Below are positions 8,517 through 41,020 of a stretch of 47,684 bases of DNA, in pieces. The position numbers and the translations under genes were made by a program. This DNA comes from Tortispora ganteri (Eukaryota): contig PPNB01000001.1 in assembly GCA_003707115.1 (NCBI GenBank), positions 744,001 through 791,684 on the forward strand, in the 5' to 3' direction. The notes below the pieces were generated by a model. That model was not told where the DNA came from and made no database searches. It saw nothing but the letters and a program-made list of their open reading frames with translations. Within the stretch, counting starts at the first letter, position 1; every line of letters starts with the position of its first letter.

Positions 8517-8524
8517 CTTTCGAC

Positions 8525-9103
8525 ATGATTTGGTTGTTGTTGGTAGTTTTTCAGGTTGTAGCATTTCAGATTACTGGCCAAATAAAAGAAGAGTATCCAG
8601 CAAATAATATTATAGAAGTGCGATTGAATTCTGTCAATAAGCGGTATGTTGGCGGACTCAAGAAAGATGGTGTATTCGAAATCGAAGTTGACCCCGGTGT
8701 TTACTCACTTCATATTTTAAGCACTACGCACAAGTATCCGCTAGTTAAAGTCAATGTTAGCGAATTTGATGAGATAAATTGTCAAATAATGGAAATAGAT
8801 GTGCCATTTAATGAATCAGGCATTCCTGTGGCATACCCTCTTCAACTACATTCGACTAGTTGTCTTATATGTAAAGATGACGGCAATTCTTCATTCTCAA
8901 TATGGGGACTCATCAAGAACCCGGCTGTTTTTATGATAGTCACTTCGTTAGGATTTATTTACGCAATTCCAAAACTTAACAAATTTACTGCCGATCTCAA
9001 TAAAGAGCTCGAACAAGCTGCCCGCGATAATCCTCCAGCAGCTAAACCCGTGGAGAAAAGGCAAGAAAAACTACAACAGAAGAAATTAAAAAAGAGGAAA
9101 TAA
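8525..9103 (+). CDS. ER membrane complex subunit 7 (EMC7/Sop4)-like
   Basis: Signal peptide MIWLLLVVFQVVA, beta-sandwich with DGVF..V.PG.Y.L, LIKNP-hydrophobic helix-PKL, basic tail. ATG at 8525. Confidence 0.75.
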   Translation: MIWLLLVVFQVVAFQITGQIKEEYPANNIIEVRLNSVNKRYVGGLKKDGVFEIEVDPGVYSLHILSTTHKYPLVKVNVSEFDEINCQIMEIDVPFNESGIPVAYPLQLHSTSCLICKDDGNSSFSIWGLIKNPAVFMIVTSLGFIYAIPKLNKFTADLNKELEQAARDNPPAAKPVEKRQEKLQQKKLKKRK

Positions 9104-9131
9104 GCTGTAAAGTTATCTTAATAGAGAACAT

Positions 9132-10574: not shown

Positions 10575-10668
10575 TGTGAGATGAAGTCTAAAACTGGGAG
10601 AACTTTTTGAACCAATCAGGCTAGCTACTTAACTTTACTAACACGTTGGCACTACTCTACCAATTACC

Positions 10669-11742
10669 ATGAGCGAATCAAAATCATCGGTAGTTGAGTC
10701 TTTGTCACGAAGACGTGGTTCAAGCGTGTCAGAAATCACACATCAGATAAAAGATTTAGCTCCACCAGTATCACCAAAAATCGTGATACTATGTTTAGCG
10801 TGGTGCGCCTGCTCAGCCTTTTCAAATACTCTAAACAAATCAATACTCAACTTATTTCCTTATCCTATTACTTTAACAGAACTCCAGTTCTTGTTTATTG
10901 TTATATGCGCATTATTCACGCGTATTTTGCATAGAATACCCTGGTTTGGATCCATTGCTACCGTTGACTTAACTGGTCCTAGATCACTCTTCAGCACTAC
11001 GCAATCATGGCTAAAATATGTAACAAGAAGAACTGCTATTCTTGCTGTTTTCCAACTATCCGGTCACATATTTTCACACAAGGCCACTTCTCTCATAGAC
11101 GTATCTCTCGTGCATACTATCAAAGGATCTACGCCACTCTTCGCCGTTATTGCAGCACGTATTTTCCTAGGTTCGACCTTCTCAGCCGCAACCTACTGGT
11201 CTCTTTTGCCCTTAACAATAGGTGTCATGATGACATGTTCCGATAACTTATCTGGAAACCTCATTGGAATACTGTGGGCGCTCACAGGAACTATTGTTTT
11301 TGTTGGTCAAAATCTTTACTCCAAAAAGCTAGTCACTGTTGATCCAAATGCGATTATGGGTGAGTACAAGATGGATAAAGTCACACTACTATTCTTTACA
11401 TCAATTTATGCATTTCTGTTCTCAATACCGGTTTGGTTGTCCATCGAAGGTCGCGGTCTGTACACTTACAGTAAAGAGAATACCGTCCCACGAAACGAAC
11501 TGCTCATCCTCTTCATTTTAAACGGTGTTTCTCACTTCGGACAATCATTACTGGCTTTCCAGCTCTTGGGTCTTGTTTCCACTGTGACATACTCTGTCGC
11601 TTCACTAATCAAGCGTATTCTGGTAATTGTGGTAGCCATTGTTTGGTTTGGAAGGCCAGTGTCTTTTATACAAGGTGCAGGCATATGTTTGTCATTTGTT
11701 GGCCTCTACTTGTACGATAGAGTTGGTACTAAGCATCATTAA
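10669..11742 (+). CDS. SLY41: Triose-phosphate/nucleotide-sugar transporter family protein (Sly41-like)
   Basis: Multiple TM helices; FPYPITLT..QF, VSLVHTIK..P.F.V and VTYSVASLIKR motifs. Confidence 0.8.
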   Translation: MSESKSSVVESLSRRRGSSVSEITHQIKDLAPPVSPKIVILCLAWCACSAFSNTLNKSILNLFPYPITLTELQFLFIVICALFTRILHRIPWFGSIATVDLTGPRSLFSTTQSWLKYVTRRTAILAVFQLSGHIFSHKATSLIDVSLVHTIKGSTPLFAVIAARIFLGSTFSAATYWSLLPLTIGVMMTCSDNLSGNLIGILWALTGTIVFVGQNLYSKKLVTVDPNAIMGEYKMDKVTLLFFTSIYAFLFSIPVWLSIEGRGLYTYSKENTVPRNELLILFILNGVSHFGQSLLAFQLLGLVSTVTYSVASLIKRILVIVVAIVWFGRPVSFIQGAGICLSFVGLYLYDRVGTKHH

Positions 11743-12457
11743 TGCGGCAGTATCACACACATATAGATCGATTGCGATTGATCTGTAATACTTTTTGTCA
11801 ATGTGGCTACATCGCCAAGCTTTTTGACAACATAGAAATTTGTTGGCCCATTTAAAGCACGTCAGAAGTCTAAAAGCTAATTTATCAGTCTCAGTGCCTG
11901 TTTTACGAATAGGGTCTTCGACGAATGACTTTAAAAATTACACTCTACTCCTGGTACATTCCATATACTTGACCTATCGCTCACTCACCACCCCCTCAAC
12001 GCCAAAATATAATATTCAACTAGAACTATTTGACTTATTACGCCCCGCAATATGTTTTCGAAGTCGAAGGAGGTGTATTCGCAAAAATATGTTGCGCTTT
12101 CATACTTGAACCCCCACTTCACGGCTGAATATGTCCACGCGTTGTGATGCTGTATGGACAATGTCAATTCCCATTTAGGAAGGTTACCCCTCATTCAAAC
12201 TCAACAGTTTTTCCTATGGCACCCCCAATCGCCTCGTCGCACCACTACCCCCAAAGCGAACTAACCGATTAAATTAGCCTGTCAGGTGCGTTATCTCGGT
12301 GGAATTTATTGTTTATATTTGCATCTCCTCTTGAGGTTATCAGAATTCGTGCGAGTTAGTCTTATTTTCCTCCACTTTTTGTCGCTATAAATACTGTCGG
12401 TCATCTCCTCCCTCCCCAACTGCTGTTTCGCGACAGTCCATATAGAACAACGTAACA

Positions 12458-17913: not shown

Positions 17914-19224
17914 TTATATAGATTTTACGGCAGCGCGTGACTTGCGTAACTTTTCATAGGCATAGTAGCTGCTTTTCCCGAGCCCAGCACTTAACAGACC
18001 TTTAGCGCTCTGTATCCAGCTTGAACGCCTAACAATCTCTTGAATCGAAGTTTGAATCGTTTGTGAGAGCATATTATCACTGGCAATACGCTGTTCGAAT
18101 TCTCCGCCTACGCGCATCTGATATGTCTCGTCTTTTCCTGTGACAGGGTAGTCTTCGGGCTGTGGCGGCCGTTTTGTTCCAAATTTCGAACCGTAATGCG
18201 TTTGTATTCGTTTCCTCAGAGCTCGCGGCAGTCTCCGTATCATATTACTCCGCGGAACAAGATCCATATCTTGTTGCAATTTACAGGATCCGTCCATACC
18301 GGTATTGAGAATAGTGATGTTGGGGAGATTATTAATAAGTGGTCTGTACTGCAACTGGAACTGTGGGAGCTGATTTTCAACAATATTGTGTACTTTGTAT
18401 GGGTTTTCACCGATACCCATACGCATGTCTCCAGTGTACGATAGACCGGCAATTGTGGTATAGAGCTGCTTCTCAGTGAACGATTCAGGCAATATAAGCA
18501 TGGAAGTACGAATTGCAGAAAGAATGTTACCTTGTTGTGCAGCTTGGATCCCCGCGTCACGCTTGAATAGACGTACTGGTTTGTGAAGACGGCCTGCTAA
18601 GTACATGTATTTCCATTCAGACAGATCTTCAAGTAATTGGTCCATTGATACTACTCCGTACTTGACAATAGGTCCCTGGCCCGGATGGCTTTTTGGCGAC
18701 ATATCAACATACGGGTTGTAATAAACACCCGGTCCCAGACTACTAAGTTTTGTTATAGCTCCGGATCCCAGGAACCGCAGACACGAATAGTGGTCTCGAT
18801 GCTGCATCAAGTTCAACGAGTGGAAGTGTTCAGGGTATGTTACTGCAAATATTAAATCAAGTTGTGGTGTTGTTTCGGTAGATATATGTTTACCCTGCGG
18901 CAAGGCAGCTGACCCATAGGCAAAGGCGTGTCTTATTGGCGCTCTAAATTGTTTTAGTAACTGTCGCAGTTGTTCTTCCAAATGGTCCTGGTCATCGCTC
19001 GGAATCTGGGGCAAACTAAGCACTTTCGACTCTCGTTCCGGGATTTCGGCATCGTCTTTTACCATACTGAACATTCTGATCGACATCCCATACTGAATTG
19101 CGTGCCTCACTGGTAATCGTCTTTGGAAGAGCATATTGTGGCAGAAGGTAAAGTCCTCCTCGGCGGTTTGGGATATGAGAGTGTAACATCTACCTATTAG
19201 TCCTCGGCTGGTACGGCCGAACAT
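17914..19224 (-). CDS. TAM41: Mitochondrial phosphatidate cytidylyltransferase
   Basis: AFAYGS, HSLNL.Q...HYS, KYGVVS, YLAGRLHKPV and SY.GD.RM..GENP.KV; Arg-rich presequence. Exact start uncertain. Confidence 0.93.
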   Translation of the reverse strand: MFGRTSRGLIGRCYTLISQTAEEDFTFCHNMLFQRRLPVRHAIQYGMSIRMFSMVKDDAEIPERESKVLSLPQIPSDDQDHLEEQLRQLLKQFRAPIRHAFAYGSAALPQGKHISTETTPQLDLIFAVTYPEHFHSLNLMQHRDHYSCLRFLGSGAITKLSSLGPGVYYNPYVDMSPKSHPGQGPIVKYGVVSMDQLLEDLSEWKYMYLAGRLHKPVRLFKRDAGIQAAQQGNILSAIRTSMLILPESFTEKQLYTTIAGLSYTGDMRMGIGENPYKVHNIVENQLPQFQLQYRPLINNLPNITILNTGMDGSCKLQQDMDLVPRSNMIRRLPRALRKRIQTHYGSKFGTKRPPQPEDYPVTGKDETYQMRVGGEFEQRIASDNMLSQTIQTSIQEIVRRSSWIQSAKGLLSAGLGKSSYYAYEKLRKSRAAVKSI

Positions 19225-19942: not shown

Positions 19943-21124
19943 TTATAGAATCATGTCATATCGTAAGCGGGCCCAGTCTTCATCGAGTATGGCGCTTTCG
20001 GAATCATACTGATATTTCGAACCAGAAGATGATTCCATCTCTAAGCCAGTAGCAGTAACAGCTGCGGCTGCAGCGGCAAGAGTCCTGAACATTATCATTT
20101 CCTCAGACTTGTCAAATACTGACGGCCTGGTTCTGATCACTTCCGATTGCGATCGGTTACCTTTCGGTTCTTTATGTTCCGAGTACCCTACCACTCGTAA
20201 CTGTTCTTGTCCATCCCATTTCCAGAGCCGACCAGCGCACTCAAACCCACCGCCCATACGGTTATCAAAACTCCATCGCCTACCTGATCTACCAGCAGAG
20301 AGTAGCTGCAGTGATCGCGTCGCCCTCAAAACCTGCAAAAAATCGTTAGGAGAAGCTGCTAGTTTATCGTCATTGACAAACTCCAATTTCAAAGGTAACG
20401 GTGGTGGTGTCAGTGGGCCATCAATGCTCTCTTCTGACGAGGAGTTAGTGCCCCTTCGGTTCTGGTCAGGCATAGGCAGAGAGTCTGAACGTGACAAAAT
20501 CGGCTTAGAGCTGGTAGACGCACTTGAAGACTTTCGGCGTCGTCTTCGGCGGATATTTCCGGTGAATCGCAATTGTAGCTGACCAAACCCAGGACGGTCC
20601 GGCTCCAGACACGCATCCGGGAAAGAATCTCCGAACAGTGGTATAAGAGTATATCGTACATGATAGCATGTACGGATAGCAAGGGCTCGTGCATATTGGA
20701 AAGGAAGCCAGGTGCCTTGGATCTTCAAGAAACCGCCACGGACTCTTCGTATGAACGGTTCCAAGTCGGGCGAGTTCTCTACCAACCGCACTATGTCAGC
20801 TTTCGAGTTGCCAATAGCCTTCCAGATACCAGTTAGGTGCACATATCCTGAATGGTAATCCCACATTATACTCTGCCCATTTAGTGTGTATTCGAACACC
20901 GTAAAGCAATGTCTTTCATCCAACGCAGTGGCATATTTCCGAGTCACAATGGCATGGTTCTTCCCTAGCATATTGGCCTGTTCGCTAGGTATTTTTGAAA
21001 TGTCAAACGCATACACTGGATAATTTACAGTATCGTCTTCTGGAGATAACAAAAAACGATTGCGTTTGCTCGTTACTTTAGTTGTTGCCTCTTTGCGGGT
21101 CTCGGCCGGTTCTAATAAGACCAT
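19943..21124 (-). CDS. APSES/KilA-N DNA-binding protein (Xbp1-like group)
   Basis: IMWDY.SGYVHLTGIWKA, RVRGGFLKIQGTW.PF..A and Y.LIPLFG..FP..CL.P; RRRRRRK NLS. Confidence 0.85.
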   Translation of the reverse strand: MVLLEPAETRKEATTKVTSKRNRFLLSPEDDTVNYPVYAFDISKIPSEQANMLGKNHAIVTRKYATALDERHCFTVFEYTLNGQSIMWDYHSGYVHLTGIWKAIGNSKADIVRLVENSPDLEPFIRRVRGGFLKIQGTWLPFQYARALAIRTCYHVRYTLIPLFGDSFPDACLEPDRPGFGQLQLRFTGNIRRRRRRKSSSASTSSKPILSRSDSLPMPDQNRRGTNSSSEESIDGPLTPPPLPLKLEFVNDDKLAASPNDFLQVLRATRSLQLLSAGRSGRRWSFDNRMGGGFECAGRLWKWDGQEQLRVVGYSEHKEPKGNRSQSEVIRTRPSVFDKSEEMIMFRTLAAAAAAVTATGLEMESSSGSKYQYDSESAILDEDWARLRYDMIL

Positions 21125-22131
21125 AGCGAGGCAGTACTATTATTTGCAAAAGTCGCGGCTAGTTACCGAAAATATCAGCAGTGTGCGTAAGTAAGCAAAA
21201 TTCGCGTTAGTATTTGTCGGGTTTAACGAATAAACGCGGTGGCGTAGATGTTTGACCAGGTCTTGCTCGATCTCGGAGGTGAGCGGGCTCGACAGGGGCA
21301 GCGGTGGCCAGATACACAAAGGGAGGGGTTAAAAGGCTCGTTCAACGGCTAATTATCAGTGTTTTCTTCCACTTGGAGCTCAAGTAAAACTCTAGGCTAA
21401 ATCCTTAAACAGCCTAATACTTATAACAGTCAGCTTCAAGGCACAAAAGTACGCGACTTTTGCTCTTTCTGATACAATTAGTCGAAAGAAGATAGCAAGT
21501 CTACCCGCTTTTTGATTGTTAATACTCAATCCCAATTTCGACATTAAACTTTATTCTGTTATTCAACGTTAAACCCTTAACCACATTAAGATAGTTCTAC
21601 TGATTGGCTAGTTACTGGGACATTCGTAGATAAGGCTTTTAGTAAAGAACTCATCCTAAGCTTATCTATGTTATATCTTGCCACACATTCTCGACCACAG
21701 TTGCCGTTATACGGTCAATGGATAATTTTTTCACGCAGCTTCAAACTATAAGTATTTAATACAGTGATTTAAGAAATTCTTAAAGCTCCTAATGTGTTTT
21801 CTCCGCTTGGAACTAGTGTCTAGCAACCTCTTTTAGACGTGAAAATAAGCATATATGATCTGCTAGTGTTTGCCAATAAGACCATTCACTTTCCGTTGGG
21901 ACAAAACCTTATATTTAAAGATAAGACGCGCACGGTCAATTCTTAAAAACACCAAAAGAATCAAATTGCTGTATAGTCGCAAAGGTTAAAAAGCGTGACA
22001 TCATAATAACCTCACGCGTCATTCAGGTATACATAGAATATTTTCTTATAAAAATGTGAATTATATAGCAGTACCGTTAGAGCAATTAATAGAAGAGCAA
22101 AAGGCATCGCTATCCGAAAGGTTGTTTGACC

Positions 22132-27971: not shown

Positions 27972-28805
27972 TTATTCTTCTTCGCTGCTGCTGGACATGT
28001 CAATTTCCTTTGCAAGCTGGCTCCGAGCAAGGTCACTGAGCGATTTAGGTCCAGGTCGAGCAATTTCTATTTCTGGTTCCTGCTCTTCTTGAAGGCTCTC
28101 TTTGAGTTCGTTGGCCAAGTCTAGAAGGTCGGCATCACTAACATCACTGACGTCGCTAGCATTGTTTGCACTATCAATATCATTATCGGTCGACAATTGC
28201 TTCGAAGGAATAGGAAGGGATTTTTTTGCAACCGATGTACGTTTTGGTTTAGGAGATGGAGGTGTAAGTTTCTTGACTTTCGCTTTCGACTGCGATCCTG
28301 ACACCCTCCGCTTAGGTGCAGGCTTTTCAAGTTTTATAGTCTTTTCTGGCTTTGCAATAACCGGCTGTTCTTCCTGGTTGTTAGCCGAGAGTCTTCTTGG
28401 TCTAGTTGCTGCGGCACTGCGTACAACTGGTTTACTCCTTTGCCGTGCCTTCGATTCACCCGATTCCTTAGAGGGACGTTTTTCGAGGTTGAGCCTAAGC
28501 AGCGAATTGGCATTCTCAAGACGGAACCTATTCGCTGTCTCGTCGAATATCAACATACAATCGATGTCCTTAACCTCTGTCTCGCGGCCTGTGAATGTGA
28601 CCTGCTCGTTGTTCGGTAATGTTGCCGCCAGCTCTAACTGCGCATTGTCTCGCGTCAGCGTGAGTTCATCAATGGCATCAACAGAGTCTGGTTTGAACAA
28701 GTACCGGATGGCATAAATGACGTAATCACTGGTACTACCAAATACCGTCGACCCTATTGATACTTCATATTCTATATCTTCCGCTTTGTCTGCTGCAACA
28801 GCCAT
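27972..28805 (-). CDS. ELL-associated factor (EAF domain) homologue
   Basis: IRY.FKPDSVD, F.G......DCMLIFDE....F.LE EAF core; acidic SSSSEEE C-terminus. Confidence 0.75.
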   Translation of the reverse strand: MAVAADKAEDIEYEVSIGSTVFGSTSDYVIYAIRYLFKPDSVDAIDELTLTRDNAQLELAATLPNNEQVTFTGRETEVKDIDCMLIFDETANRFRLENANSLLRLNLEKRPSKESGESKARQRSKPVVRSAAATRPRRLSANNQEEQPVIAKPEKTIKLEKPAPKRRVSGSQSKAKVKKLTPPSPKPKRTSVAKKSLPIPSKQLSTDNDIDSANNASDVSDVSDADLLDLANELKESLQEEQEPEIEIARPGPKSLSDLARSQLAKEIDMSSSSEEE

Positions 28806-29119: not shown

Positions 29120-30724
29120 CTAATGAGCCATACCGTTGTCGATCATGGTCTGGACATAGCTCCAGTAAGTATCCTTGGTCATGATACGACATTTCTTGCC
29201 GAAAAAGATCATAATAAGGAAGGTCAAACTGCACGCAATACAGACAAAGGCTGCAGTAATAAAGCAGTTTTGGTATCCCATACCTTCGACCCATGGTGTG
29301 ATACCGTATCCCATGCCAAAACTCATGCTGTTACGGATAACAATGACTAGTACCATTGCAGGGGCAGCACCCTCTCTGTAGCAATCAACTACATAGTTCA
29401 CAGGTGCTGTGATAGTCAAGATAATAATACCACCAAGCATACCCATTCCAAACATCAGACCAATCCAATGGATGTGATGCGCAGCTCCAACTCCCCACAG
29501 AATCAATGCAGCAGGTGCGATGATCATGAAAGGAAGCAAACTCCACAAACGATGTTCTGGTTCAGATATACCGTTATTCCTGCGCGCAAAGTAGATACGA
29601 AGCCAATCAGACATGTATCCTGCCCAGAAATACACAATAAGACAACCAATAAGTGTCGCAATGTACGCAAGACCGACAATAGATGCCCTAAAGTTGTATG
29701 GAGGCGAACTGAGAATCAATGAAGCAGTAGCATTGAGCACATTGAACCAAATCAAACCAGATCCGTACATAAATCCGGCCCAAACAATACCGGGGAATCT
29801 AACAAGAAAAAGAGGTTGAACCGCCATTGTCCACAACATAAATGGACGTTTATGATCGAACATTTTTAGTTTTTGCCAGAATGTCTTAGGTTTCTTCACG
29901 ACAACAGGAGATTCCAGCTCTCCATCTTCACTGACTTCACCAGAAACAACAACAGGTCCAGTTTTCTCGGGAGCAGTCTCGCTATCATCATCTGCAAGTT
30001 CGTCTTCGGGTGCGATAGTGTTTCGGCTCCAGTTAGTCTCTTCCATGAAAAGAAACATCCAGACCGTGCATACTGCACCAAAGATACTGCACCAGTAGAT
30101 AACCCAAGGCCATCCCATACCGTCTGCGATGAAACCAGCAACAAGTGGACCAGCAAAGTTGGAGGTGATAAGTGCAAGACCGTACACTCCTATCCATGTT
30201 CCACGTTCATGTTCAAACCAGATATCAGACACCGAAATTTCAAGAAGTGATTCGACAGGAGCTCCTAAAAATCCTTGAAGAATTTTGCCTCCAAGCCACT
30301 GACCTGAATTTTTCGCGTAAGGGGCCCATAGAATAATAAGAGTAGTAGATAAGACACTAAAAACGTAAACAGGACGCTTGCCATATTGCTGAGCAATAGG
30401 TTGCCAGAAGAGATTTCCAAGACCAAAAAATAAAAACATATAACCAGTACCTGTGTTGAGAGTATCTGGTGAAAGATTCATATTCTCAGCAACAGGAACA
30501 ATGATAGAGTAAACTGCAGCGGAAGGGACACCGAGAGCATAGATGTACACTACAATACAGAACATATGCATGTACTTCCTCTTTCTATCCCAATTAAGAG
30601 GATCATTAGGATCATCAGATGGTGTAGGACTAAGCACAATATCTTTCAAGTGCTTTCCTTTGATATTACCATTCTCATCAATGAGATGGATAGTACCTGG
30701 CACAGCATTTCTGTCGATATGCAT
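29120..30724 (-). CDS. MFS transporter, HOL1-like
   Basis: VPGTIHL, L.PTPSDDPNDPLNW, YGKRPVY, F.HERG, FMEET and EPEHRL motifs; about 12 TM segments. Confidence 0.9.
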   Translation of the reverse strand: MHIDRNAVPGTIHLIDENGNIKGKHLKDIVLSPTPSDDPNDPLNWDRKRKYMHMFCIVVYIYALGVPSAAVYSIIVPVAENMNLSPDTLNTGTGYMFLFFGLGNLFWQPIAQQYGKRPVYVFSVLSTTLIILWAPYAKNSGQWLGGKILQGFLGAPVESLLEISVSDIWFEHERGTWIGVYGLALITSNFAGPLVAGFIADGMGWPWVIYWCSIFGAVCTVWMFLFMEETNWSRNTIAPEDELADDDSETAPEKTGPVVVSGEVSEDGELESPVVVKKPKTFWQKLKMFDHKRPFMLWTMAVQPLFLVRFPGIVWAGFMYGSGLIWFNVLNATASLILSSPPYNFRASIVGLAYIATLIGCLIVYFWAGYMSDWLRIYFARRNNGISEPEHRLWSLLPFMIIAPAALILWGVGAAHHIHWIGLMFGMGMLGGIIILTITAPVNYVVDCYREGAAPAMVLVIVIRNSMSFGMGYGITPWVEGMGYQNCFITAAFVCIACSLTFLIMIFFGKKCRIMTKDTYWSYVQTMIDNGMAH

Positions 30725-30792
30725 TTTTACTAAAGTACTTGAAAACTTGTCGCCACATTCAGAATATCGGCAATCTATTTATACTGTGAGCC

Positions 30793-30798
30793 CCGAGG
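30793..30798 (-). promoter_or_regulatory. CCTCGG element (FarA/Ctf1/Por1-type) just upstream of the TATA of the MFS gene
   Basis: CCGAGG on + strand, 69 bp upstream of the ATG; TATAAATA on - strand at about 30776-30783. Confidence 0.4.
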
Positions 30799-32074
30799 TC
30801 TTTCAAATGGAACCCCGTCGATAGATAGCCACTATCTATAAACTCTATCGGAGTTTATAACATTGGCAAACCATTGATTCGAATAGGAAGTAAGTGGTAC
30901 AATAATTCCTTTGCTTTAAAGTGTCGCCTCAGTTCCTGATTGGCAGATTGCTATTTTAACTTTTTCATCACTTAGGCACTGAGATTTCTGATCGTTCTTA
31001 TCTCTTGGCCACATGGGTTAATTAAGCTCTAACTTTTTAAAAGCCCGCAAATGCACTTCTTGATTAACGGAGAAGACATATGTTTTGTTCGTACCCGGAA
31101 CTAAATTTCATAATGAATGCTGATATTTTCATTTTCAGTTTTTACCAAGTATATACTGGTTTTTTTTTTAGATGGTATACGCATATTGTAAGTTTATCTT
31201 ATCGATAAACTTGATTTCAGGCCCTGATGCTCGCCAAGGAGGGAAGCTGCGCGATTACCGCAAGTGTAATTAAGCGTGAACCTTAACTCAAATAGTTAAA
31301 CTGCTTTCCATTGACTTATGATGTTGAGTGTTTTGCATCGAACGGCACTGTAAGAGAGAATAATGGAATAATGGGAAGAGAATAATAAAAATAACGCTGA
31401 ATCTATGGCTGCATAATTCCAAATGAACAATTTGATTTACAGTATTAATTGATCTTAAGTAACTGTACATACTGTGTATGCTACTACTTATTTTCATATC
31501 ATTGCGGATCATTGCAACATACAAAGTACTTTAATCTCACTTATCTACACTACACCAATTTACCCTTATCTTTAGAACTGTGTTTATCGCGTATGCTGAA
31601 CAGGTGCTATCGTATGTTACTACGTGATCTCAGTCTCATCATATACAGAAATTTCATTAAGCTTGACGCGCTGATACCCTGCGCCTATATCGCTAATGAT
31701 GATTTCAATTCACAATCTACTGCTTCATTTCCCTTATGATTTAAGTTTGCATGCTTATCTGCTGATTTTCACGCTTCTTTTAGCTTTTGGTTCGCCTATT
31801 GCATTTACGCTTATCATTACGCGACCCACTCGTGAACTCTTCTACATACGCGACTTTGCATGCTGTAAACATTGATCATAGTTCCTTCCTATTATCTTCA
31901 TAACTTTGTTATACGCGATTACATTAATCTCAGTAATAACAACTGCAAGATAATTATTGATTTTGGATCAGGATTCAATTTATTCCAATTACGCGCGTTA
32001 TTAAAATAACTATGTTGTATGTATGTATTTGTGTATAATCTACTTAAGGGTTTTAAGATATACGATCAGTACTT

Positions 32075-33709
32075 CTATTCTCCAAGGACAGCGGCTGCAA
32101 TCACTTTAGTGTATGCAAGTACCTCCTCGTCGCGGAATTGTCTTCCTAGAAGTTGAAGATTGATAGGAGCATCAATGTACTTTTCAGGTGCATTGAGATA
32201 TTTCGCTCTCTGTCTAGCTTCGTACTCTGTGCGAGGTTCAAATGAATCTTCAGCATCAATTTTAGGATCAATGGTTATTCCAGTAGGGATTACTGATCCA
32301 GGCATATCTAAGACGTTAAATATTGCCGTATATGCCCAATGTTCACACTCGTGCGAAATTGCTGCTGGTCCAAAACTTACAGGGCACATAATAATATCAA
32401 TTCCTTCCTTGTTCATTTTGTCAAACCAAGCTATTCTTGAAGCATTTCTAATAGCATTTTGCTCCCATAGTTCTGCGCCAGAAAGTGGTTTTGCGTAGGA
32501 AAGCGCGTATTTAGTTAATTCAAGCCAAGGTTCACCAGATATTCCAAGTGCTTTCTTCTGGGCTGTACCATCATCAGCAAAAAATGACTTCAATGCCATT
32601 TCATATATCTCCTTCGAGTTCAATGGATCCCAAGTCACTACCTTATGTCCTGCTTTTTCCAACTTTTCGATAGCATGATCCAGTGCGCGGAAAACAGGTT
32701 TCAAAGGATACACAATACCGTCCTCTTTCATCACTCCAATAGTAAGGCATTTTGGTGTATCCACCTTACGCCAAGGCATAATTGGAATGGTGCAATCTAC
32801 CTCCCATGGTTCACCGTCTATAACTGTTTTCATATACAGTTCCAGGTCTTCAGCTGATTCAGTAAAAGGCCCGATAGATGGAAGAAGTGTAATCTGGCCT
32901 GCACCTGCGCCAGAACGACCTTTAACAGTAATACGTTGTGCTGTTGGACGGAATCCGTAGCATCCATTGAATCCTGCTGGATTGCGAATAGAGCCTGCTA
33001 TATCGCTACCAATTCCAAAGGTTGAACCATAGAATCCAACTAAGGAACCCTCGCCTCCAGAAGACCCACCAGCTGTCAAAAGACGATTATGAGGGTTCAA
33101 TGTCATTCCAAAAATGTTATTGTAGGAATCGGCGTGCATAAGTGATTGTGGCTCATTTGTACGAGCAAACGGAATAGCGCCAGCTTTTTTCAAGATACTT
33201 AATTGCAAATTGTCTTCATTAACAACGCGACCAATGAATCCAACAAATCCGGCATTAGCTTCTTTACCTTTCACCCAAAGATGTTCTTTGATAGAAAGTG
33301 GAATTCCATGAAGAGGTCCAATAGTCTTTCCAGTTTCTTTGAAAGTCTTATCTAAACTCTCGGCAATTTTCATGGCGTCATCTGCCATAAATTCAGTAAC
33401 ACAATTCAGCAATTGTTGTGCCATAGTGGCTCTTTTAAGGAATGCAGTCAATGTCTCAACAGCAGTGTATTTTCCTGTAGCAATTTCACCAGCCAAAATG
33501 TAAATTGGAGTTTCAGTAATAGTCAATTCCTTTTCTGTCATAATTCCGCTCTCACGAGGCACATTCATGACATTAAGTCGATCTGATGGAGGTAACTTGT
33601 CTTCGGGAATCAAGTATTCCTTGATGATCGAATCATCACGGATCTTACGAACCCTTTCAATCTCAGATTTCCATTGCTCGTATTTAACAGGATCTTCAGT
33701 AGTTTCCAT
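32075..33709 (-). CDS. Amidase signature family hydrolase (AmdS/FAAH-like), copy 1
   Basis: GPLHGIPLSIKE (Lys), GGSSGGEG (cis-Ser) and GSDIAGSIR (nucleophile Ser): triad intact. Confidence 0.95.
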   Translation of the reverse strand: METTEDPVKYEQWKSEIERVRKIRDDSIIKEYLIPEDKLPPSDRLNVMNVPRESGIMTEKELTITETPIYILAGEIATGKYTAVETLTAFLKRATMAQQLLNCVTEFMADDAMKIAESLDKTFKETGKTIGPLHGIPLSIKEHLWVKGKEANAGFVGFIGRVVNEDNLQLSILKKAGAIPFARTNEPQSLMHADSYNNIFGMTLNPHNRLLTAGGSSGGEGSLVGFYGSTFGIGSDIAGSIRNPAGFNGCYGFRPTAQRITVKGRSGAGAGQITLLPSIGPFTESAEDLELYMKTVIDGEPWEVDCTIPIMPWRKVDTPKCLTIGVMKEDGIVYPLKPVFRALDHAIEKLEKAGHKVVTWDPLNSKEIYEMALKSFFADDGTAQKKALGISGEPWLELTKYALSYAKPLSGAELWEQNAIRNASRIAWFDKMNKEGIDIIMCPVSFGPAAISHECEHWAYTAIFNVLDMPGSVIPTGITIDPKIDAEDSFEPRTEYEARQRAKYLNAPEKYIDAPINLQLLGRQFRDEEVLAYTKVIAAAVLGE

Positions 33710-34322
33710 CTTTTCGTGTAGTATATACCTGCTTTTGCATATTGGACATTGGCTCTTATACTCCGCATTGGCGCTTAAGTAAAGACGACAAAGTTTGATT
33801 TAGGTTTGCCCTTGCACAAATAAGGTGCTATGAGCCATATCCGCTTAACTAAGTTACCGGAGATTTGCATTCTAAGCGACGCGTATAATCCCTAAATATG
33901 TGTTTATTATTAAAACTAGCCACCACTAAATGATGGCGAGTATTGTCGGTTAAAGAGATCAAGATGAGTAATTCTAGTATTAGTCTTAAAAGCATCATTA
34001 AATACCAGATGGGATTAATATATTCCTATCTTAAACTTTAATAGCAAAGGATAAGTTTAGATTAAATTCCTAGACTGCTTTTTGAAACTTGGTAAAGACA
34101 TTATACCGTTTTAATCATACTTGGATATCTCACAGTGGAATACTATGGCTTAATTTTATGTAATTTATGGCTAGCTTGAACTATTGTAAATGACGAACTA
34201 GTTATTGTATCTGGAATACAAATTGATGATTTATACAAAGAATATAGATGTATATAAAGAATATAAATGTATATAAAGAAAATAAATATATATATATATC
34301 TATATCTATCGCCTCATCCAAT

Positions 34323-35960
34323 TTAATTCTTAAGAACGGCAGCAGATATCACTTTCGTATAAGCAAGAACTTCCTCGTCACGGAAATGTCTTCCTATAAG
34401 TTGAAGATCGATAGGTGCACCGGCATACTTCTCTGGAGCATTAAGATACTTTGCTCTTTGTTTAGCCTCATATTCTGTGCGTGGTTTAAACGAATCTTCT
34501 TCTGCGTCAATTTTAGGATCAACTGTTATAACAGTAGGGAATACTGATCCAGGCATATCCAGAGAATTGAATAATGTGGTATAAGCCCAGTGTTCAGTAT
34601 CATGAGACAAAGCAGCGGGTCCGAAATAAGCTGGACACAGAATAATGTCCACTCCTAGTTCCTTCATTTTAGCGTCCCATTCGATTCTGGTGGCGTTTCT
34701 AATGGCATTCTGTTCCCACTGTTCTAGAGCCGAAAGAGGTTTAGCGTAAGACAAGGCGAACTTTGTGAGTTCTAACCATGGTTCTCCAGAAATTCCAAGT
34801 GCTGTCTTTTGAGCTGATCCGTTATCTGCATAGAAAGAATTAAGAGCAACATCATAGACTTCTCTTGGCTTGATTGCTTCAAACTTCACTATCTTATGTC
34901 CGGCTTTCTCCAGCTTTTCAACTGCATCATTCATTGCACGAATAACGGGCTTGACAGGATACACGAGACCATCATCTAACATAACACCAATAGTAAGGCT
35001 CTTAGGTGTTTCCACCTTACGCCACGGCATAATGGGAATCATACAGTCAACTTCCCAAGGTTCTCCATCTGCAACAGTCTTCATGTACAAGTCCAAATCC
35101 TCGGCAGATTGTGTCATAGGACCGATAGATGGAAGAACAGTAATTTGGCCTGCACCTGCGCCAGAACGACCTTTAACAGTAATACGTTGCGCTGTTGGAC
35201 GGAGTCCGTAGCAGCCATTAAATGCAGCAGGAATACGAATTGAACCACCAATATCACTACCAATGCCAAAAGCTGATCCATGGAACCCAATAAGTGCACC
35301 TTCTCCTCCTGAGGAACCTCCTGCCGAGAGTAGACGATTAAAGGGATTCAATGTCATTCCATAAATGTTGTTAGATGAATCAGCATGCATAAGTGATTGC
35401 GGTTCATTTGTACGAACAAACGGCACAACGCCTGCCTTTTTAAGGATACTTAATTGCAAGTTGTCTTCATCAACAACGCGACCAATGAATCCAACAAATC
35501 CGGCATTGACTTCCTTGCCCTTGACCCACAAATGTTCTTTGATAGAAAGTGGAATTCCATGAAGAGGTCCAACAGTCTTTCCAGTTTCTTTGAAAGTCTT
35601 ATCTAAACTCTCGGCAATTTTCATGGCGTCATCTGCCATAAATTCAGTAACACAATTCAGTAATTGGTGTGCCATAGTGGCTCTTTTAAGGAATGCAGTC
35701 AATGTCTCAACAGCAGTGTATTTTCCTGCAGCAATCTCACCAGCCAAAATGTAAACTGGAGTTTCAGTAATAGTCAATTCCTTTTCTGTCATAAGGCCGC
35801 TCTCACGAGGCACGTTCATGACATTCAGCTGATCTGATGGAGGTAATTTGTCTTCGGGAATCAAGTATTCCTTGATGATCGAATCATCACGGATCTTACG
35901 CACCCTTTCAATCTCAGATTTCCATTGCTCGAACTTAACAGGATCTTCAGTAGTTTCCAT
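34323..35960 (-). CDS. Amidase signature family hydrolase, copy 2
   Basis: Same triad (SIKE, GGSSGG, GSDIGGSIR). Start set at METTEDP (35960) by alignment with copy 1. Confidence 0.95.
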   Translation of the reverse strand: METTEDPVKFEQWKSEIERVRKIRDDSIIKEYLIPEDKLPPSDQLNVMNVPRESGLMTEKELTITETPVYILAGEIAAGKYTAVETLTAFLKRATMAHQLLNCVTEFMADDAMKIAESLDKTFKETGKTVGPLHGIPLSIKEHLWVKGKEVNAGFVGFIGRVVDEDNLQLSILKKAGVVPFVRTNEPQSLMHADSSNNIYGMTLNPFNRLLSAGGSSGGEGALIGFHGSAFGIGSDIGGSIRIPAAFNGCYGLRPTAQRITVKGRSGAGAGQITVLPSIGPMTQSAEDLDLYMKTVADGEPWEVDCMIPIMPWRKVETPKSLTIGVMLDDGLVYPVKPVIRAMNDAVEKLEKAGHKIVKFEAIKPREVYDVALNSFYADNGSAQKTALGISGEPWLELTKFALSYAKPLSALEQWEQNAIRNATRIEWDAKMKELGVDIILCPAYFGPAALSHDTEHWAYTTLFNSLDMPGSVFPTVITVDPKIDAEEDSFKPRTEYEAKQRAKYLNAPEKYAGAPIDLQLIGRHFRDEEVLAYTKVISAAVLKN

Positions 35961-36571
35961 CTTTACTTGTAAATTAACGCACAAGTGCGATATACTGCTC
36001 CATTTATATGAGAATGAATACAACGATTCCGATAAGGTTCTCGCATAAAATTGTGCTAGACCAATGAGAAGTCAAACCTCGCTTTCACGCTAAGGTTTTT
36101 ATTTTCTTTCCCAGCGGATACTTATAGACGACAAAGATAGCTCATCTCATCCGCTTTATCTTGAATTTAGTTATTTCAAACTTCTGCGATACTGAATTGG
36201 GTTGGCTACATAGGACCGCAAAGGCAAAATCTTAACTACAAAATAGAGTAAAAGTATAATTCATATAAGCTATAACTAACTTTACCGCTCTTGGCGCAGA
36301 CCTTAGCGAGTATCCTATTTAAACCTTATGTGTTCGTAATAATATTCGTCGCTTATACGATGATTGAAATTCTGTAGACGCAAAGCGCTATCTGATACGA
36401 TAAGCGATCTTACAAGTCTATTGATACAAAAACAATCCCGGTAAGTATGTTACACTTAGGATTGATACGAGATATCGCCTAGGTTGGATTAGTTCGATCG
36501 CCTTCAGTGTTTATGAGTCTAATTACCTTATATATTTATTTTATCAGTTTAACCGTTAAGGCACTACATGC

Positions 36572-38206
36572 CTAAGCAAGGACTGTTTCAGCAATGATCT
36601 TTGTAGCAGCGAGTACTTCTTCGTCTCTGTACTGGCGTCCGAGAACCTGGAGGTTGATCGGGGCGCCTACATATTTTTCAGGCCGGTCATTGTACTTTGC
36701 TCGCTGCATAGCTTCCCATTCTGTTCGCGGCTCATAGTCGTCAGGTCCGTCTAGAGCAAGATCAACAGTTATACCAGTAGGGAAGACTGCTCCGGGCATA
36801 TCGAGGACATTGAACAAGGTACAATAAGGCCAGTGACTTTTATCACTTTGGAGAGCAGCTGGACCAAAATATGCAGGACAAATTATAACATCGACGCCTC
36901 TTTCTCTCATGAGTTTATCCCATTCAGCTCTGCATCTGTTTCTGTTGGAATTGTGTTTCCATTGCTCGACACCACTAATATTCTTGCCTAATGCTATTAT
37001 TCTCTTTGTTATAGGTAACCATGGCTCACCAGATATTCCTAACGCTTCTTTTTGTGCAGCAAACCCGTCCGCGAAGAAAGAGTTTAATGCGGCATCAAGT
37101 ATAGCCTGGTTATCGTAGCCAGTCCATTCGACTATTTGGTGTCCTGCTGCACGGAGCTTGTCTACAGTATGTTTGATACCGCGAATCATAGGAGGTACAG
37201 GGTATACGAACCCATCTTCGTACATCATGCCTATCTTAAGCTTCCTTTTCCTCTCGACCTCACGCCATGGCATAATAGGTAAAAGTCCAACATCATTCCA
37301 GGGCTCTGCATCACACAGTACTTTCATGTACAATTCTAAGTCTTCACTAGACTGTGCTAATGGGCCCAATGATGGAAGTACAGTGATTTGGCCACTACCT
37401 GCACCTGTAGTTCCTGAAGTTGGTACTCGAGCAGCAGTAGGACGGAACCCGTAGCATCCATTGTATGCAGCAGGTCCTCGAATTGACCCGCCTATATCAC
37501 TGCCAATTCCTAATGGAGATCCTCGAAAACCAATTAGTGCACCTTCACCTCCAGACGATCCGCCAGAAGATAAGTTTAAATTGAATCCGTTCTTACACAT
37601 CCCCCATATATTGTTGTTTGTGTCGCCATGCATTAATGTCTGTGGCTCATTAGTGCGTGCAAACATTATAGCACCAGCGTCTTTAAATATCTTCACGTGA
37701 GGATTATCTGTTTCGGGAATCTTACCTATAAACCCTACAAAACCACCATTACATTCTTTGCCTTTCATCCAAATATGTTCTTTAACAGACATTGGCAATC
37801 CGTGCAGCGGTCCTACTGTCTTGCCGGTCTCCTTGTAGTATGTATCTAGTTCTTTTGCCTTTGTTAATGCCTCTTCAGTCAAGAATTCAGTCACACAATT
37901 GAGCAACTGTTGAGCAATTGTAGCACGTTTCATGAACGCAATCAGAACTTCTTCTGCTGAAAGCTCGCCGTCAGCTATCTGAGCAACTAAATCTACAGCA
38001 GTTGTTTCGGTAATCTTGAGCTCTTTTTTGGACATAGTACCGGCTTCGTATGGAACATTGATAACATTCATTCTGTCGGATGGAGGCAGCTTATCTTCAG
38101 GAATAAGATACTCCTTTACGATCGAATTATCTCTGATCTTTCTAACGCGCTCTATTTCTGGTTTCCATTGCTCAAATTTTACAGGGTCCTCAGTAGTTTC
38201 GAACAT
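36572..38206 (-). CDS. Amidase signature family hydrolase, copy 3 (more divergent)
   Basis: SVKE, GGSSGGEG, GSDIGGSIR; colinear with copies 1 and 2 but synonymous sites differ throughout. Confidence 0.95.
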   Translation of the reverse strand: MFETTEDPVKFEQWKPEIERVRKIRDNSIVKEYLIPEDKLPPSDRMNVINVPYEAGTMSKKELKITETTAVDLVAQIADGELSAEEVLIAFMKRATIAQQLLNCVTEFLTEEALTKAKELDTYYKETGKTVGPLHGLPMSVKEHIWMKGKECNGGFVGFIGKIPETDNPHVKIFKDAGAIMFARTNEPQTLMHGDTNNNIWGMCKNGFNLNLSSGGSSGGEGALIGFRGSPLGIGSDIGGSIRGPAAYNGCYGFRPTAARVPTSGTTGAGSGQITVLPSLGPLAQSSEDLELYMKVLCDAEPWNDVGLLPIMPWREVERKRKLKIGMMYEDGFVYPVPPMIRGIKHTVDKLRAAGHQIVEWTGYDNQAILDAALNSFFADGFAAQKEALGISGEPWLPITKRIIALGKNISGVEQWKHNSNRNRCRAEWDKLMRERGVDVIICPAYFGPAALQSDKSHWPYCTLFNVLDMPGAVFPTGITVDLALDGPDDYEPRTEWEAMQRAKYNDRPEKYVGAPINLQVLGRQYRDEEVLAATKIIAETVLA

Positions 38207-38416
38207 GGTTATTACCTGAATAAGTTACACATCGCAATTATACAAATATTTATACAATAAAAAATACGGCTCAAACATACTTGCAGCGCTAAGTTCGCGT
38301 GTACGCGGGGTTAAATAAAAAAAAAAAACTTTAATAAATATACAGTTACAAGTTTATATGATAATAGACTGATAAGGAGAAACGGAAAAGTAACACAGAA
38401 ATGGCAGTAAACAGGC

Positions 38417-40408
38417 TTATAAGCGTGATTTTGAAGCAAAAGCAGTACGCAGACGCAAAACATCCTTCTTATAGTCTTCTTTGTTGACAGCGTTGTGATT
38501 CTTTGCGATATTTAGTAGGTTTGCATATACGTTTCCATCGTACCTGCCAAGAGAGGAGTTGAGCTCATAGTCTGTGAACCCAAATGCATCAGTGAATGCG
38601 ATAAGCTTTGGCGAAAATCCCGCTACTGCTTCGCTGAAAAGTTCACGAATGATGCTAGCACCAGAAGGCGCAAGACCTCCACCTTCTTCTAGCAGTTCAG
38701 CCAAGCTACGGCTCAAGACAAACAACAAGTACACTTGAAGTGGCAAGTTAAGTTCAGTCACAATCTGTGCTTTACGGAACATTTCGCGACCTACATGCCA
38801 TTCAGCATGAGATCTAGTAAGTATCATAGTGTCCATACTATACTTAGCAAGATCAGGTTCAGCTCCTTGAGAAGAAGAATCACGCTTTATCTTATTGAGC
38901 AACTTAAAAGCGTTATTACGCACACGCGACTCAAGCAAACGGATCAAGATACGCGGATTTGATAAGTATTCTTTAGCTTCAAATGGATCACCTTTACCAT
39001 ATTCATTAGATGTCTTACGTGTGCTGCCAAAGTAACCGTATTTATCAGGTACATTGAGCACGCCTCCATCCTTATACACACGTTTTGCATACCTAAGAAT
39101 ATCACGAGCGGTTTGCTGGGCAATAACATAGTTCTCACCTTCATAAGTCTGACTTGGTATTAGTGACGCAAGAATAGCGCCTATACCATTCTGTTCCAGC
39201 ATACCGTGGCCACCAAGAGCCTTGCGACAGTCCTCAATCATCATTACACATTCGGTAGTCGTGAGAACTTTCAAAAACGACGACTTAATGTGCAAATCTG
39301 CTAGTCTTTTTGTGTTCTTTTGAAGCAGCTCTTCGCTAAACACCTTGAACTCCTCAGCCATCTGGTTTCCAATAATGCAGAATGCGTAAGCGGTCGCAAC
39401 AGCTGGAGCGATCCTCTCAGCAACGCCCGGGTACGTGATCACCTGACGTTCAATGCCCCTGAGTCGATCTCCGGGTGCAGCAAATTGGCGACGAATAGCA
39501 GTATACCTAGAAGCAATAGTTGCAGCTTTAGCAAGATTTTTGCCAAATCCGGCTACGATATTGGCACGCAGAGCAAGCATGGATCCGTACGATAGTTTCG
39601 GATGCACAGGCGGTAAGTATTTGCCATCAGGAGTCACATTCGAGAACCTGTTCAGCATATTTTCGCGCGGGATCCGCACTTTATTGACGCCTAAAAACCC
39701 GTTGTCCACAGTAGAATATGAATTGAGCACTTTTGCGCCGATATCGCCGACAGTGACTCCTGGCAGTACATTGTGTGTCTTCATGTCACGTATAGGCGTT
39801 ACAAATAAATGTGGACCGTAGTTCTTTCCATCAATAAACAACTGTGCTTGTATAAGACACGTGTTTGCAGTGACACCAAGATTACCAATCCAAAACTTGT
39901 AAGACTCTTCGCGCGGAGAATTCATTATAAATTCTTGAGTCTTTTTATCGTAAGTAGCAGTTGTTTCAAGACGCTGGACATTAGATCCATGAGCAATCTC
40001 GGTCTGGCCGTAACATCCAACCATCTGATAAGTCGAATAAAGTGGTTTCCATTTAGCGATCTGCTCATCAGAGCCTTGACTCTCGATAACAGGAACGAAT
40101 GCCTTTTCGTGAAGAGCTACCGAGAAGTCATTGGTAAAGAGCGACATTAGTTCCATAAATTCAGAGGGTGAAAGATTAAGTTCATCACGAAGTTTAAGCG
40201 CTTCATAAGTCGCATTGAAAGTGACATGCAGAGTTTCAGTTCGTGATAAGTCTACGAGATTACGCTTGTCGAAAGCTGGCTTTGACTTCAAAATCTGTAC
40301 AAAGCTATCTAATCTCTCTCGCTCACCTGGTTTCCATATACACTTTTTTAATTCATTGATTTCTTTTACAGAAAGTTGTTTTCTTGCAGAAACTAAATCT
40401 GCATTCAT
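38417..40408 (-). CDS. Peroxisomal acyl-CoA oxidase (ACOX1/AoxA type) with PTS1
   Basis: GCYGQTEIAHGSNV..LETTATYD, K.W.G.LG, DNGFL, CRKALGGHG, TYEGEN (catalytic Glu), LGRYDGNVY; ends -SRL. Confidence 0.93.
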   Translation of the reverse strand: MNADLVSARKQLSVKEINELKKCIWKPGERERLDSFVQILKSKPAFDKRNLVDLSRTETLHVTFNATYEALKLRDELNLSPSEFMELMSLFTNDFSVALHEKAFVPVIESQGSDEQIAKWKPLYSTYQMVGCYGQTEIAHGSNVQRLETTATYDKKTQEFIMNSPREESYKFWIGNLGVTANTCLIQAQLFIDGKNYGPHLFVTPIRDMKTHNVLPGVTVGDIGAKVLNSYSTVDNGFLGVNKVRIPRENMLNRFSNVTPDGKYLPPVHPKLSYGSMLALRANIVAGFGKNLAKAATIASRYTAIRRQFAAPGDRLRGIERQVITYPGVAERIAPAVATAYAFCIIGNQMAEEFKVFSEELLQKNTKRLADLHIKSSFLKVLTTTECVMMIEDCRKALGGHGMLEQNGIGAILASLIPSQTYEGENYVIAQQTARDILRYAKRVYKDGGVLNVPDKYGYFGSTRKTSNEYGKGDPFEAKEYLSNPRILIRLLESRVRNNAFKLLNKIKRDSSSQGAEPDLAKYSMDTMILTRSHAEWHVGREMFRKAQIVTELNLPLQVYLLFVLSRSLAELLEEGGGLAPSGASIIRELFSEAVAGFSPKLIAFTDAFGFTDYELNSSLGRYDGNVYANLLNIAKNHNAVNKEDYKKDVLRLRTAFASKSRL

Positions 40409-40470
40409 TTTCAGCTCACTGAAAGAAAAATCCCTGAAAATATCATGTCATTTATATGTTATTCGCTTCG

Positions 40471-40505
40471 CCTCGGCATAAAACTCTATTCAAGATTTTG
40501 CGGGG
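40471..40505. promoter_or_regulatory. CCTCGG element and Mig1/CreA-type GC box upstream of the acyl-CoA oxidase gene
   Basis: CCTCGG at 40471-40476, 63 bp upstream of the ATG and next to TATAAA (- strand, about 40451-40456); TTTTGCGGGG at about 40496-40505. Confidence 0.5.
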
Positions 40506-41020
40506 TTGGGTTCATAGTCTGTTTAAGATCACATTATCCGATTAGAGCGCACATAACCGAAAAATAAGTACACAATCAAGAATTCTCTGTTGAAAAATAA
40601 ATCAATTCAATCCCAAAATAAAATACTATACTTAGAAACGTTTTTACCGTGGTGTTTTTCTTTTCTTGGTTACTCTTTGAAAGGTTTTCTTAAAGAAGTA
40701 CAGTAATTATCGAAAATATGGAATCATCCCAATCGGGTATCTGTTCCTTAACCACTGATGGCCTTGGAAACCTTTGTCAGCAATACATTCTTACACATTT
40801 CATTATCGTCTATACAATCGCACTAGCAAAAGTTTGCCATAAATTATTAATTTTTTTCCATTGATTTACGTTTAGCTCTTAACTAGAAATTTAAAAATTG
40901 ACTCTTCTTTTTCTTCCCGCTAATATATTAACAGAATTGTTTCGTCGATGTTGCCCTAACCCTGATATCTCTATATACCAAACACCTAGGCGCGTTCCTG
41001 CTATTCCCATTATCCCCATT

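Follow-up and report, generated by a model that had tools for sequence, protein, structure and literature searches.

A permease and a tandem amidase array adjoining a relic acyl-CoA oxidase in Tortispora ganteri: a candidate nitrogen-utilisation locus

A stretch of 47,684 nt from contig PPNB01000001.1 of the yeast Tortispora ganteri (the window) was analysed, with attention to a block of metabolic genes at 29120..40408. The block lies between an EAF gene and a gene for a MutS I-V protein of the MSH6 type and consists of five intact, uninterrupted open reading frames (ORFs) on the minus strand. These encode a major facilitator superfamily (MFS) transporter, three amidases (A1, A2 and A3) and an acyl-CoA oxidase (ACOX). 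The same gene content had been proposed in a sequence-only reading of this DNA, and it is borne out here by the ORFs and by matches to Pfam profiles. With moderate confidence, the locus is regarded as one of the permease-plus-hydrolase type for nitrogen utilisation, in which the hydrolases form a tandem array and which is adjoined by a noteworthy relic oxidase. The block and its flanks are laid out as follows.

27972-28805, minus strand: EAF gene, flank; PF09816
29120..30724, minus strand: MFS transporter, 534 aa; PF07690, 99 bits (cut-off 33)
30725..32074: MFS promoter and spacer, 1350 bp, G+C content (GC) 0.35; without a convincing ORF
32075..33709, minus strand: amidase A1, 544 aa; PF01425, 288 bits
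34323..35960, minus strand: amidase A2, 545 aa from ATG; PF01425, 313 bits
36572..38206, minus strand: amidase A3, 544 aa; PF01425, 312 bits
38417..40408, minus strand: ACOX, 663 aa; C-terminus -SRL
40409..41020: divergent promoter of ACOX and MSH6, between the ACOX start and the first ATG of the MutS protein
41021, first ATG: MutS I-V protein (MSH6-type), flank

A 566-aa form of A2 arises from a TTG start, taken from the start codons permitted by the ORF list. Spacers within the block measure 1350, 613, 611 and 210 bp, with a GC of 0.31-0.36; that of the window is about 0.42. They had been described as AT-rich and longer than those of the gene run at 2.8-20 kb. In that run the spacers are 177, 28, 94, 715, 1021, 37, 188, 121 and 718 bp, one gene pair overlaps, and the three long spacers that were measured have a GC of 0.38-0.42. 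The block spacers thus exceed those of the run on the median, yet they are not uniquely long. Similarly, the five genes are co-oriented as stated earlier, but the minus strand is common to nine consecutive genes from 17914 to 40408, including TAM41, TOP2 and EAF, and orientation is therefore no argument for a cluster. The ORF and family survey confirmed that neither an acyl-CoA ligase nor a regulator is encoded in the block, and a search of the block for further family-bearing ORFs, transfer RNAs, Rfam matches and amidase pseudogene fragments found none.

Each of the three amidases covers positions 1-445 of the PF01425 profile, for which the cut-off is 27 bits. Residues K142, S217 and S241 (A3 numbering) are invariant in all nine sequences aligned. 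The motif GGSSGG, together with GSDI[GA]GSIR, is present in all three window amidases, A1 having the GSDIAGSIR form. Following the FAAH (fatty acid amide hydrolase) literature, we take these residues to be the Ser-cisSer-Lys triad; their numbers in A3 are presumably the same as those in rat FAAH. In a hydropathy scan with 19-residue windows no window reached 1.6 in any of the three proteins, and no N-terminal membrane anchor was detected. The C-termini (-LGE, -LKN and -VLA) do not include a peroxisomal targeting signal of type 1 (PTS1), and no signal of type 2 (PTS2) was seen when the N-terminal sequences were inspected by eye. From these features A1-A3 are predicted to be soluble and presumably cytosolic.

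The best relative of A3 in the PDB is 6KVR (E 1.2e-119, over A3 residues 8-540). Rat FAAH aligned with A3 at E 1e-51, over residues 70-381 only, and the C-terminal third remained unaligned. By these comparisons the amidases seem to be of the soluble AmdS/AMD2-like type and are not membrane FAAH. They have the Ser-cisSer-Lys triad in common with mammalian FAAH-1, but differ from it in having no N-terminal membrane helix and in the unaligned C-terminal third. Rat FAAH has a transmembrane domain and a hydrophobic cap, both of which are reportedly missing from the 6KVR structure of Min et al. 2019. Of the solved relatives of A1-A3, 6KVR is the best match and belongs to the Candida albicans amidase named 'CaFAAH' (PMC13257838 and PMC10169808, in the passages available); the name FAAH rests on homology. 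The label 'FAAH-like' accordingly describes the fold and not the substrate.

In fold (amidase signature), length (about 540-575 aa) and solubility, the Tortispora amidases resemble AmdS of Aspergillus nidulans, YlAMD1 of Yarrowia lipolytica and AMD2 of Saccharomyces cerevisiae. YlAMD1 and AmdS are acetamidases that release ammonia from amides as a nitrogen source, according to the available text of PMC7003347. The Tortispora copies differ from the acetamidases in forming a clade of seven of their own, whose members are 39-49% identical to the yeast and mould sequences compared from other genera (AmdS being outside this comparison), and in their arrangement as three tandem copies next to a permease. 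The substrate range of the family starts at C2 amides, and sequence alone cannot place A1-A3 within it.

The residue that follows G-S-I-R, three past the nucleophile serine, is N, I, G, F, V or S among the paralogues. It is constant within orthologue pairs, being N in A1 and its Tortispora caseinolytica counterpart Tc30132 (Tc denotes T. caseinolytica proteins by their JGI ids) and I in A2 and Tc21597. The equivalent residue of rat FAAH presumably lines the acyl pocket. The variability of this position, together with that presumed role, therefore suggests that A1, A2 and A3 may differ in substrate.

The history of the array was read from pairwise identities and from a FastTree tree of 123 rows, made of the 120 best database matches and the three window copies; AmdS and YlAMD1 are not among the rows. 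A1 and A2 are 83% identical, and A3 is 61-63% identical to the two (61% to A1). The tandem units are spaced by 2251 and 2243 bp. A clade of seven with support of 100 contains nothing but Tortispora sequences, namely the three copies of the window and four proteins of T. caseinolytica, in the order (Tc32828,Tc32829),(A3,(Tc21597,(A2,(A1,Tc30132)))). This clade is part of a four-way polytomy with a pair from C. boidinii and Ogataea philodendri, a 27-row yeast clade and a 74-row Pezizomycotina clade. The yeast clade, which adjoins the Tortispora clade, includes a Cyberlindnera fabianii protein named 'Acetamidase' by NCBI. A1 is 93% identical to CANCADRAFT_30132 and A2 86% identical to CANCADRAFT_21597, and this pairing suggests that the copies arose by duplication before the two species separated. 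The best T. caseinolytica match of A3 is only 68% identical, and no orthologue was seen there. On the tree and the identities, A3 is the oldest and most divergent copy, branching first in the group of the locus. The array thus seems to be older than the two Tortispora species and to be turning over.

The 5′ ends of A1 (33510-33706) and A2 (35761-35957) have 95% DNA identity over 197 nt, and the other A1/A2 stretches listed are 72-79% identical. At the protein level, in every 40 columns A1 and A2 differ at 1-4 positions up to column 200 and at 4-17 beyond it. No similarity was found between the upstream promoters of the two genes. Since identity is high at the 5′ end and the differences are concentrated in the C-terminal half, gene conversion starting at the ATG is read from the pattern, and the 5′ ends probably represent a gene-conversion tract. 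Separately, an AT-rich tandem repeat (19 nt, 3.3 copies) lies at 34228-34294 in the A1-A2 spacer, directly 3′ of the A2 stop. In T. caseinolytica, at least five paralogues of this amidase are present among the matches listed, and a second tandem pair (JGI ids 32828 and 32829) is located on another scaffold. The genome of that species is very small for a yeast, and a set of at least five paralogues is a notable expansion for it.

The transporter was matched only by the general MFS_1 profile. A crude hydropathy scan gave eleven hydrophobic windows, some of them overlapping, and the C-terminus (-MAH) is not a PTS1. The protein is 92% identical to CANCADRAFT_389 of T. caseinolytica and 54% identical to OGAPHI_000875 of O. 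philodendri, and in the MFS tree OGAPHI_000875 and the Tortispora pair fall in one 38-row yeast clade with support of 90. The sequence-only reading had called the protein HOL1-like. Among the named organisms in its 120 best matches there is no Saccharomyces and only one member of the Saccharomycetaceae, Lachancea mirantina; HOL1 itself was outside the comparison.

OGAPHI_000875, the tenth-best MFS match, and OGAPHI_000876, the eighth-best amidase match (48% identity), bear consecutive locus tags and are listed with the same longest contig, of 352,287 bp. As Ogataea belongs to a different yeast order, this pair provides some independent support for a functional pair, and a functional pairing of the transporter with the amidases is plausible on these grounds. 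A metagenome scan with the amidase alignment returned 176 stretches that fit a pattern, of which one, L001, was confirmed. In L001 a 572-aa AMD2-type amidase lies between two genes for Zn2Cys6 regulators (4356-6317, 7950-9668 and 9803-11848), one of them of the ERT1/AcuK type with a PAS domain, and neither an MFS nor an ACOX gene was found among the neighbours of the amidase. This may represent a regulator-amidase arrangement.

Promoter sequences were examined for GATAAG, the site of the GATA factors of yeast nitrogen catabolite repression (PMC6413948, in its accessible passages). The MFS promoter has six GATAAG sites on the sense strand, at 30997, 31198, 31540, 31565, 31754 and 31810, against 0.85 expected, and none of 300 first-order Markov simulations reached six. 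In the amidase promoters there are 1, 2 and 1 sites against 0.37, 0.51 and 0.10 expected (four in sum against 0.98), and in the ACOX promoter none. CCTCGG was also chosen for the scan, as the site of the Far/Ctf regulators of fatty-acid genes, which bind it and are conserved in C. albicans and Y. lipolytica according to the part of PMC5068947 at hand. One copy, at 30793-30798, is 9 nt before TATAAATA, the TATA box of the MFS gene, and 69-74 nt before the ATG. The ACOX promoter has it as CCGAGG in gene sense (40471-40476); from there it is 14 nt to TATAAAT and 63-68 nt to the ATG. In the window as a whole CCTCGG is not enriched (7 against 9.06 expected), and it is absent from all three amidase promoters. 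A k-mer comparison of the five promoters revealed no G+C-containing motif common to all; the words present in four or five of them are AT-rich and TATA-like only. Scans for bacterial promoters and terminators gave chance-level results, which are irrelevant for a yeast.

Both motifs were also seen elsewhere in the window. A 393-aa ORF without a Pfam family (19943-21124) has three GATAAG sites in its upstream spacer (21125-22131) against 0.58 expected, a count reached in 7 of 300 simulations. Two CCTCGG sites 44 nt apart (19158-19207) fall in the TAM41-like ORF as annotated, no further than 70 nt from its start, and would be promoter sites if the real start codon were further downstream.

ACOX was matched above cut-off by PF14749 (58 bits), PF22924 (168 bits) and PF01756 (78 bits); the middle domain, PF02770, scored 22 bits, below its cut-off of 33. 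The glutamate of the TYEGEN sequence aligns with residue 421 of the rat 1is2 chain and with the YEGDN motif of Arabidopsis ACX1, and E421 is presumably the catalytic base. The C-terminal tripeptide -SRL is a PTS1, in agreement with the peroxisomal location assigned to the enzyme earlier. By the available tests ACOX is a genuine peroxisomal acyl-CoA oxidase. In the PDB its best match is Arabidopsis ACX1 (8e-110), and the tomato ACX1A, rat, nematode and human enzymes follow down to 1.6e-94; Yarrowia ACOX1 and ACOX3 (5y9d and 5ys9) rank lower, at 1e-77 and 3e-70. Domain order, catalytic glutamate, PTS1 and length (663 aa against 659-661 aa) are as in plant ACX1 and animal ACOX1, but the Tortispora enzyme differs from these in its low identity, its long stem in the tree and the PF02770 score below cut-off. 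With Yarrowia ACOX1 and ACOX3, which represent the POX1/Aox oxidases of budding yeasts, it has the superfamily and the reaction in common; those oxidases have about 45 aa more.

ACOX is 90% identical to CANCADRAFT_30130 of T. caseinolytica. Outside Tortispora the best matches are only 33-39% identical (with at least 90% of the query aligned) and come from Mucoromycota, Microbotryomycetes, Taphrinomycotina, Pezizales and animals. No budding yeast besides T. caseinolytica is found among the named organisms in the 120 best matches. The database searched contains no proteins for many yeast genomes, and the window's own proteins are in none of the three match lists, so that, within the budding yeasts, the restriction of this ACOX to Tortispora holds among searchable sequences only. 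Eight of the 120 matches were dropped for a length below 560 or above 760 aa, and the FastTree tree of the resulting 113 rows has long branches. In it the Tortispora pair, on a stem of 1.26 substitutions per site, falls in a 16-row clade with Taphrinomycotina and Pezizales (support 98). ACOX thus appears to be a very divergent relic of the plant/animal ACX1/ACOX1-like lineage and to differ from the ordinary POX type of yeasts. These data would fit an old ACX1/ACOX1-type gene that was inherited vertically, was lost from most budding yeasts and in Tortispora first changed fast and then came under strong constraint, as seen in the 90% identity between the two species. Horizontal transfer was considered and rejected, since the pair groups with early-branching Ascomycota, at the support given and within the limits of a FastTree tree with long branches.

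The MFS, the ACOX and the two amidase orthologues of T. caseinolytica are all listed with the same longest contig, of 3,117,240 bp, and the JGI ids of ACOX (30130) and of the A1 orthologue (30132) are two apart. For these reasons the locus is almost certainly syntenic in T. caseinolytica, to which, by the protein identities, the source of the window is closely related. Among the 120 best amidase and 120 best ACOX matches, this congener is the only case of ACOX-amidase linkage outside the window. The sequence-only reading had raised the question of a recurrent linkage of MFS, amidase and ACOX genes; the MFS-amidase part of it recurs in O. philodendri, as read from locus tags, but the ACOX-amidase part recurs only in T. 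caseinolytica.

Taken together, these observations are read as follows, with about an even chance of being right: the core of the locus would be an amide-nitrogen utilisation unit made of an MFS permease and a tandem amidase array. The array would have evolved by birth and death, and its three products would be Ser-cisSer-Lys amidases of the fungal AmdS/AMD2/'CaFAAH' family, soluble and located in the cytosol. When good nitrogen sources are scarce, GATA factors would activate the permease gene and, to a lesser degree, the amidase genes. The amide would be taken up and hydrolysed to a carboxylic acid and ammonia or an amine, and the three paralogues would cover different amides. ACOX would be a conserved neighbour under its own, probably fatty-acid-responsive, control, and its coupling to the amidases is possible. 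The nearest concept among known loci is the DAL (allantoin) cluster of S. cerevisiae, in which, reportedly (Wong and Wolfe 2005), permease and hydrolase genes lie side by side and are controlled by GATA factors. Both would be nitrogen-scavenging permease-plus-hydrolase loci; the enzymes and the substrate differ, and co-regulation is supported experimentally for the DAL genes and is a proposal for the Tortispora locus.

Several points weigh against a nitrogen unit with ACOX as a separate neighbour. CCTCGG lies just upstream of the TATA box in both ACOX and the MFS gene, and only 210 bp separate ACOX from A3; both facts speak against treating ACOX as separate. The adjacency in O. philodendri was read from locus tags and the listed contig and not from DNA, and it is the sole such case among the named species in both the amidase and the MFS lists. 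In Cyberlindnera jadinii the amidase and the MFS have only the listed scaffold size in common, and in Coleophoma, Capronia, Botrytis aclada, Tricladium and Scytalidium the contigs listed for the two differ. L001, the yeast locus whose AMD2-type amidase is 41% identical, has no MFS gene within 8 kb. Yeasts and moulds have a large MFS family with many paralogues, and the tree singles out no orthologue; proteins of the DHA1 type, moreover, are often exporters. As for the GATAAG sites, the distance to the MFS ATG downstream exceeds 800 bp for four of the six. Counts of GATA sites predict the binding of GATA factors poorly, and bound and unbound promoters of S. cerevisiae are alike in the share with at least two sites, as stated in the accessible passages of PMC6413948.

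The reading proposed earlier, in which all five genes serve one pathway, is possible but unlikely. It would have the MFS protein import fatty amides (primary or N-acyl), the amidases split them and a dedicated ACOX oxidise the released acid after activation by a ligase encoded elsewhere. Of this chain the MFS-amidase step is plausible; a flow of the released acid into ACOX is no more than a possibility. In its favour are the ACOX-amidase adjacency kept in T. caseinolytica, the 210 bp between the ACOX stop and the A3 start, the terminal -SRL of ACOX, and the position of two of the seven CCTCGG sites of the window, which precede the TATA boxes of the MFS gene and of ACOX by 9 and 14 nt. A non-POX type oxidase with a stem of 1.26 and yet 90% conservation would also fit a specialised, constrained role. 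Against this, CCTCGG is not enriched in the window and occurs in none of the three amidase promoters, the ACOX promoter lacks GATAAG, and the five promoters have no G+C-containing motif in common. Common descent would be expected to preserve synteny with a congener whose proteins are about 90% identical, and the shared gene order is hardly informative on function; T. caseinolytica is the only species named in both the amidase and the ACOX lists of 120 best matches, and no second lineage has the linkage. The amidases have no FAAH anchor, and rat FAAH aligns over residues 70-381 only. Deletion of AMD2 left the hydrolysis of palmitoylethanolamide (PEA) unchanged, as reported in the available text of PMC2691958. 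If ACOX is the sole acyl-CoA oxidase of the genome, it is simply a housekeeping gene of beta-oxidation.

Should a five-gene pathway be real, saturated aliphatic amides would be its likeliest substrates. A fuller version, also improbable on the evidence given, would be a cluster for aliphatic or fatty amides with a permease under dual GATA and Far/Ctf-type control, fast-diversifying amidases and an ancient ACX1/ACOX1-type oxidase specialised for the released acyl chains. Phenolamides, which had been listed earlier as possible substrates, are unlikely to feed ACOX, as hydroxycinnamoyl-CoA is already alpha,beta-unsaturated. They were rejected as the source of an ACOX substrate also because no oxidase step is listed for the Aspergillus niger pathway: as described in the part of PMC10512302 consulted, it comprises a CoA synthase, a hydratase/dehydrogenase and a thiolase, and no oxidase is included.

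It is unlikely, too, that the locus holds no pathway and is merely a lineage-specific tandem duplication of an amidase between unrelated MFS and ACOX genes in a compact genome. In favour of this reading, most neighbouring genes in yeasts are functionally unrelated, and a run of nine genes, TOP2 and EAF among them, has the same orientation. The second amidase pair of T. caseinolytica is on another scaffold, with no second T. caseinolytica MFS among the 120 best MFS matches, and the L001 amidase has neither MFS nor ACOX neighbours. Such a reading does not account for the consecutive tags of the MFS and amidase genes in O. philodendri, nor for the GATAAG excess, strong in the MFS promoter and weaker in the amidase promoters. 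A detoxification unit, in which the amidases would render toxic amides from plants or microbes harmless and a DHA1-like MFS protein would export the product or the toxin, is very improbable: the G-P-containing FAGPLVAGF in a hydrophobic segment of the MFS protein (presumably akin to the antiporter motif of drug:H+ antiporters), the rapid diversification of the paralogues at the residue near the nucleophile and the life of Tortispora species in cactus rots rich in secondary metabolites would agree with it, but the GATAAG cluster points to nitrogen and not stress control, and the sequence of the MFS protein does not show which way it transports.

Beyond the flanks, TOP2 lies past EAF and the gene for mitochondrial EF-G past the MSH6-type gene. 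The remaining genes of the window are of the housekeeping kind: the second-largest subunit of RNA polymerase, a GH81 glucanase, CUS1-like and HEM13-like genes, IST1 and TAM41. The GH81 glucanase ORF (6513-8516) overlaps an EMC7-like ORF on the same strand (8405-9103) by 112 bp, and its C-terminal GH81 domain covers only positions 10-232 of the 349 of the profile; the overlap could be due to a frameshift, an intron or an assembly error. The first 2.8 kb or so of the window (1-2825) is without a convincing ORF and has a strong strand asymmetry, with GC skews of +0.35 and +0.28 and AT skews of +0.19 and +0.15 in the first two 1-kb bins. It could be a long non-coding region or a very diverged element.

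In a search of the literature, neither a fungal amidase-ACOX-MFS cluster nor any account of these genes in Tortispora was found, consistent with the earlier statement that no such cluster was known in budding yeasts. To our knowledge, few catabolic gene clusters have been found in budding yeasts; those that are known, GAL, DAL and the like, are useful for studying how pathways are assembled. If the five genes do cooperate, amide hydrolysis would be joined to beta-oxidation in a single locus. The relic ACOX bears on the remodelling of peroxisomal beta-oxidation in yeasts. A nitrogen-regulated permease with an amidase array, if true, would add a new nitrogen-scavenging locus and would hint at the nitrogen sources that are important to Tortispora.

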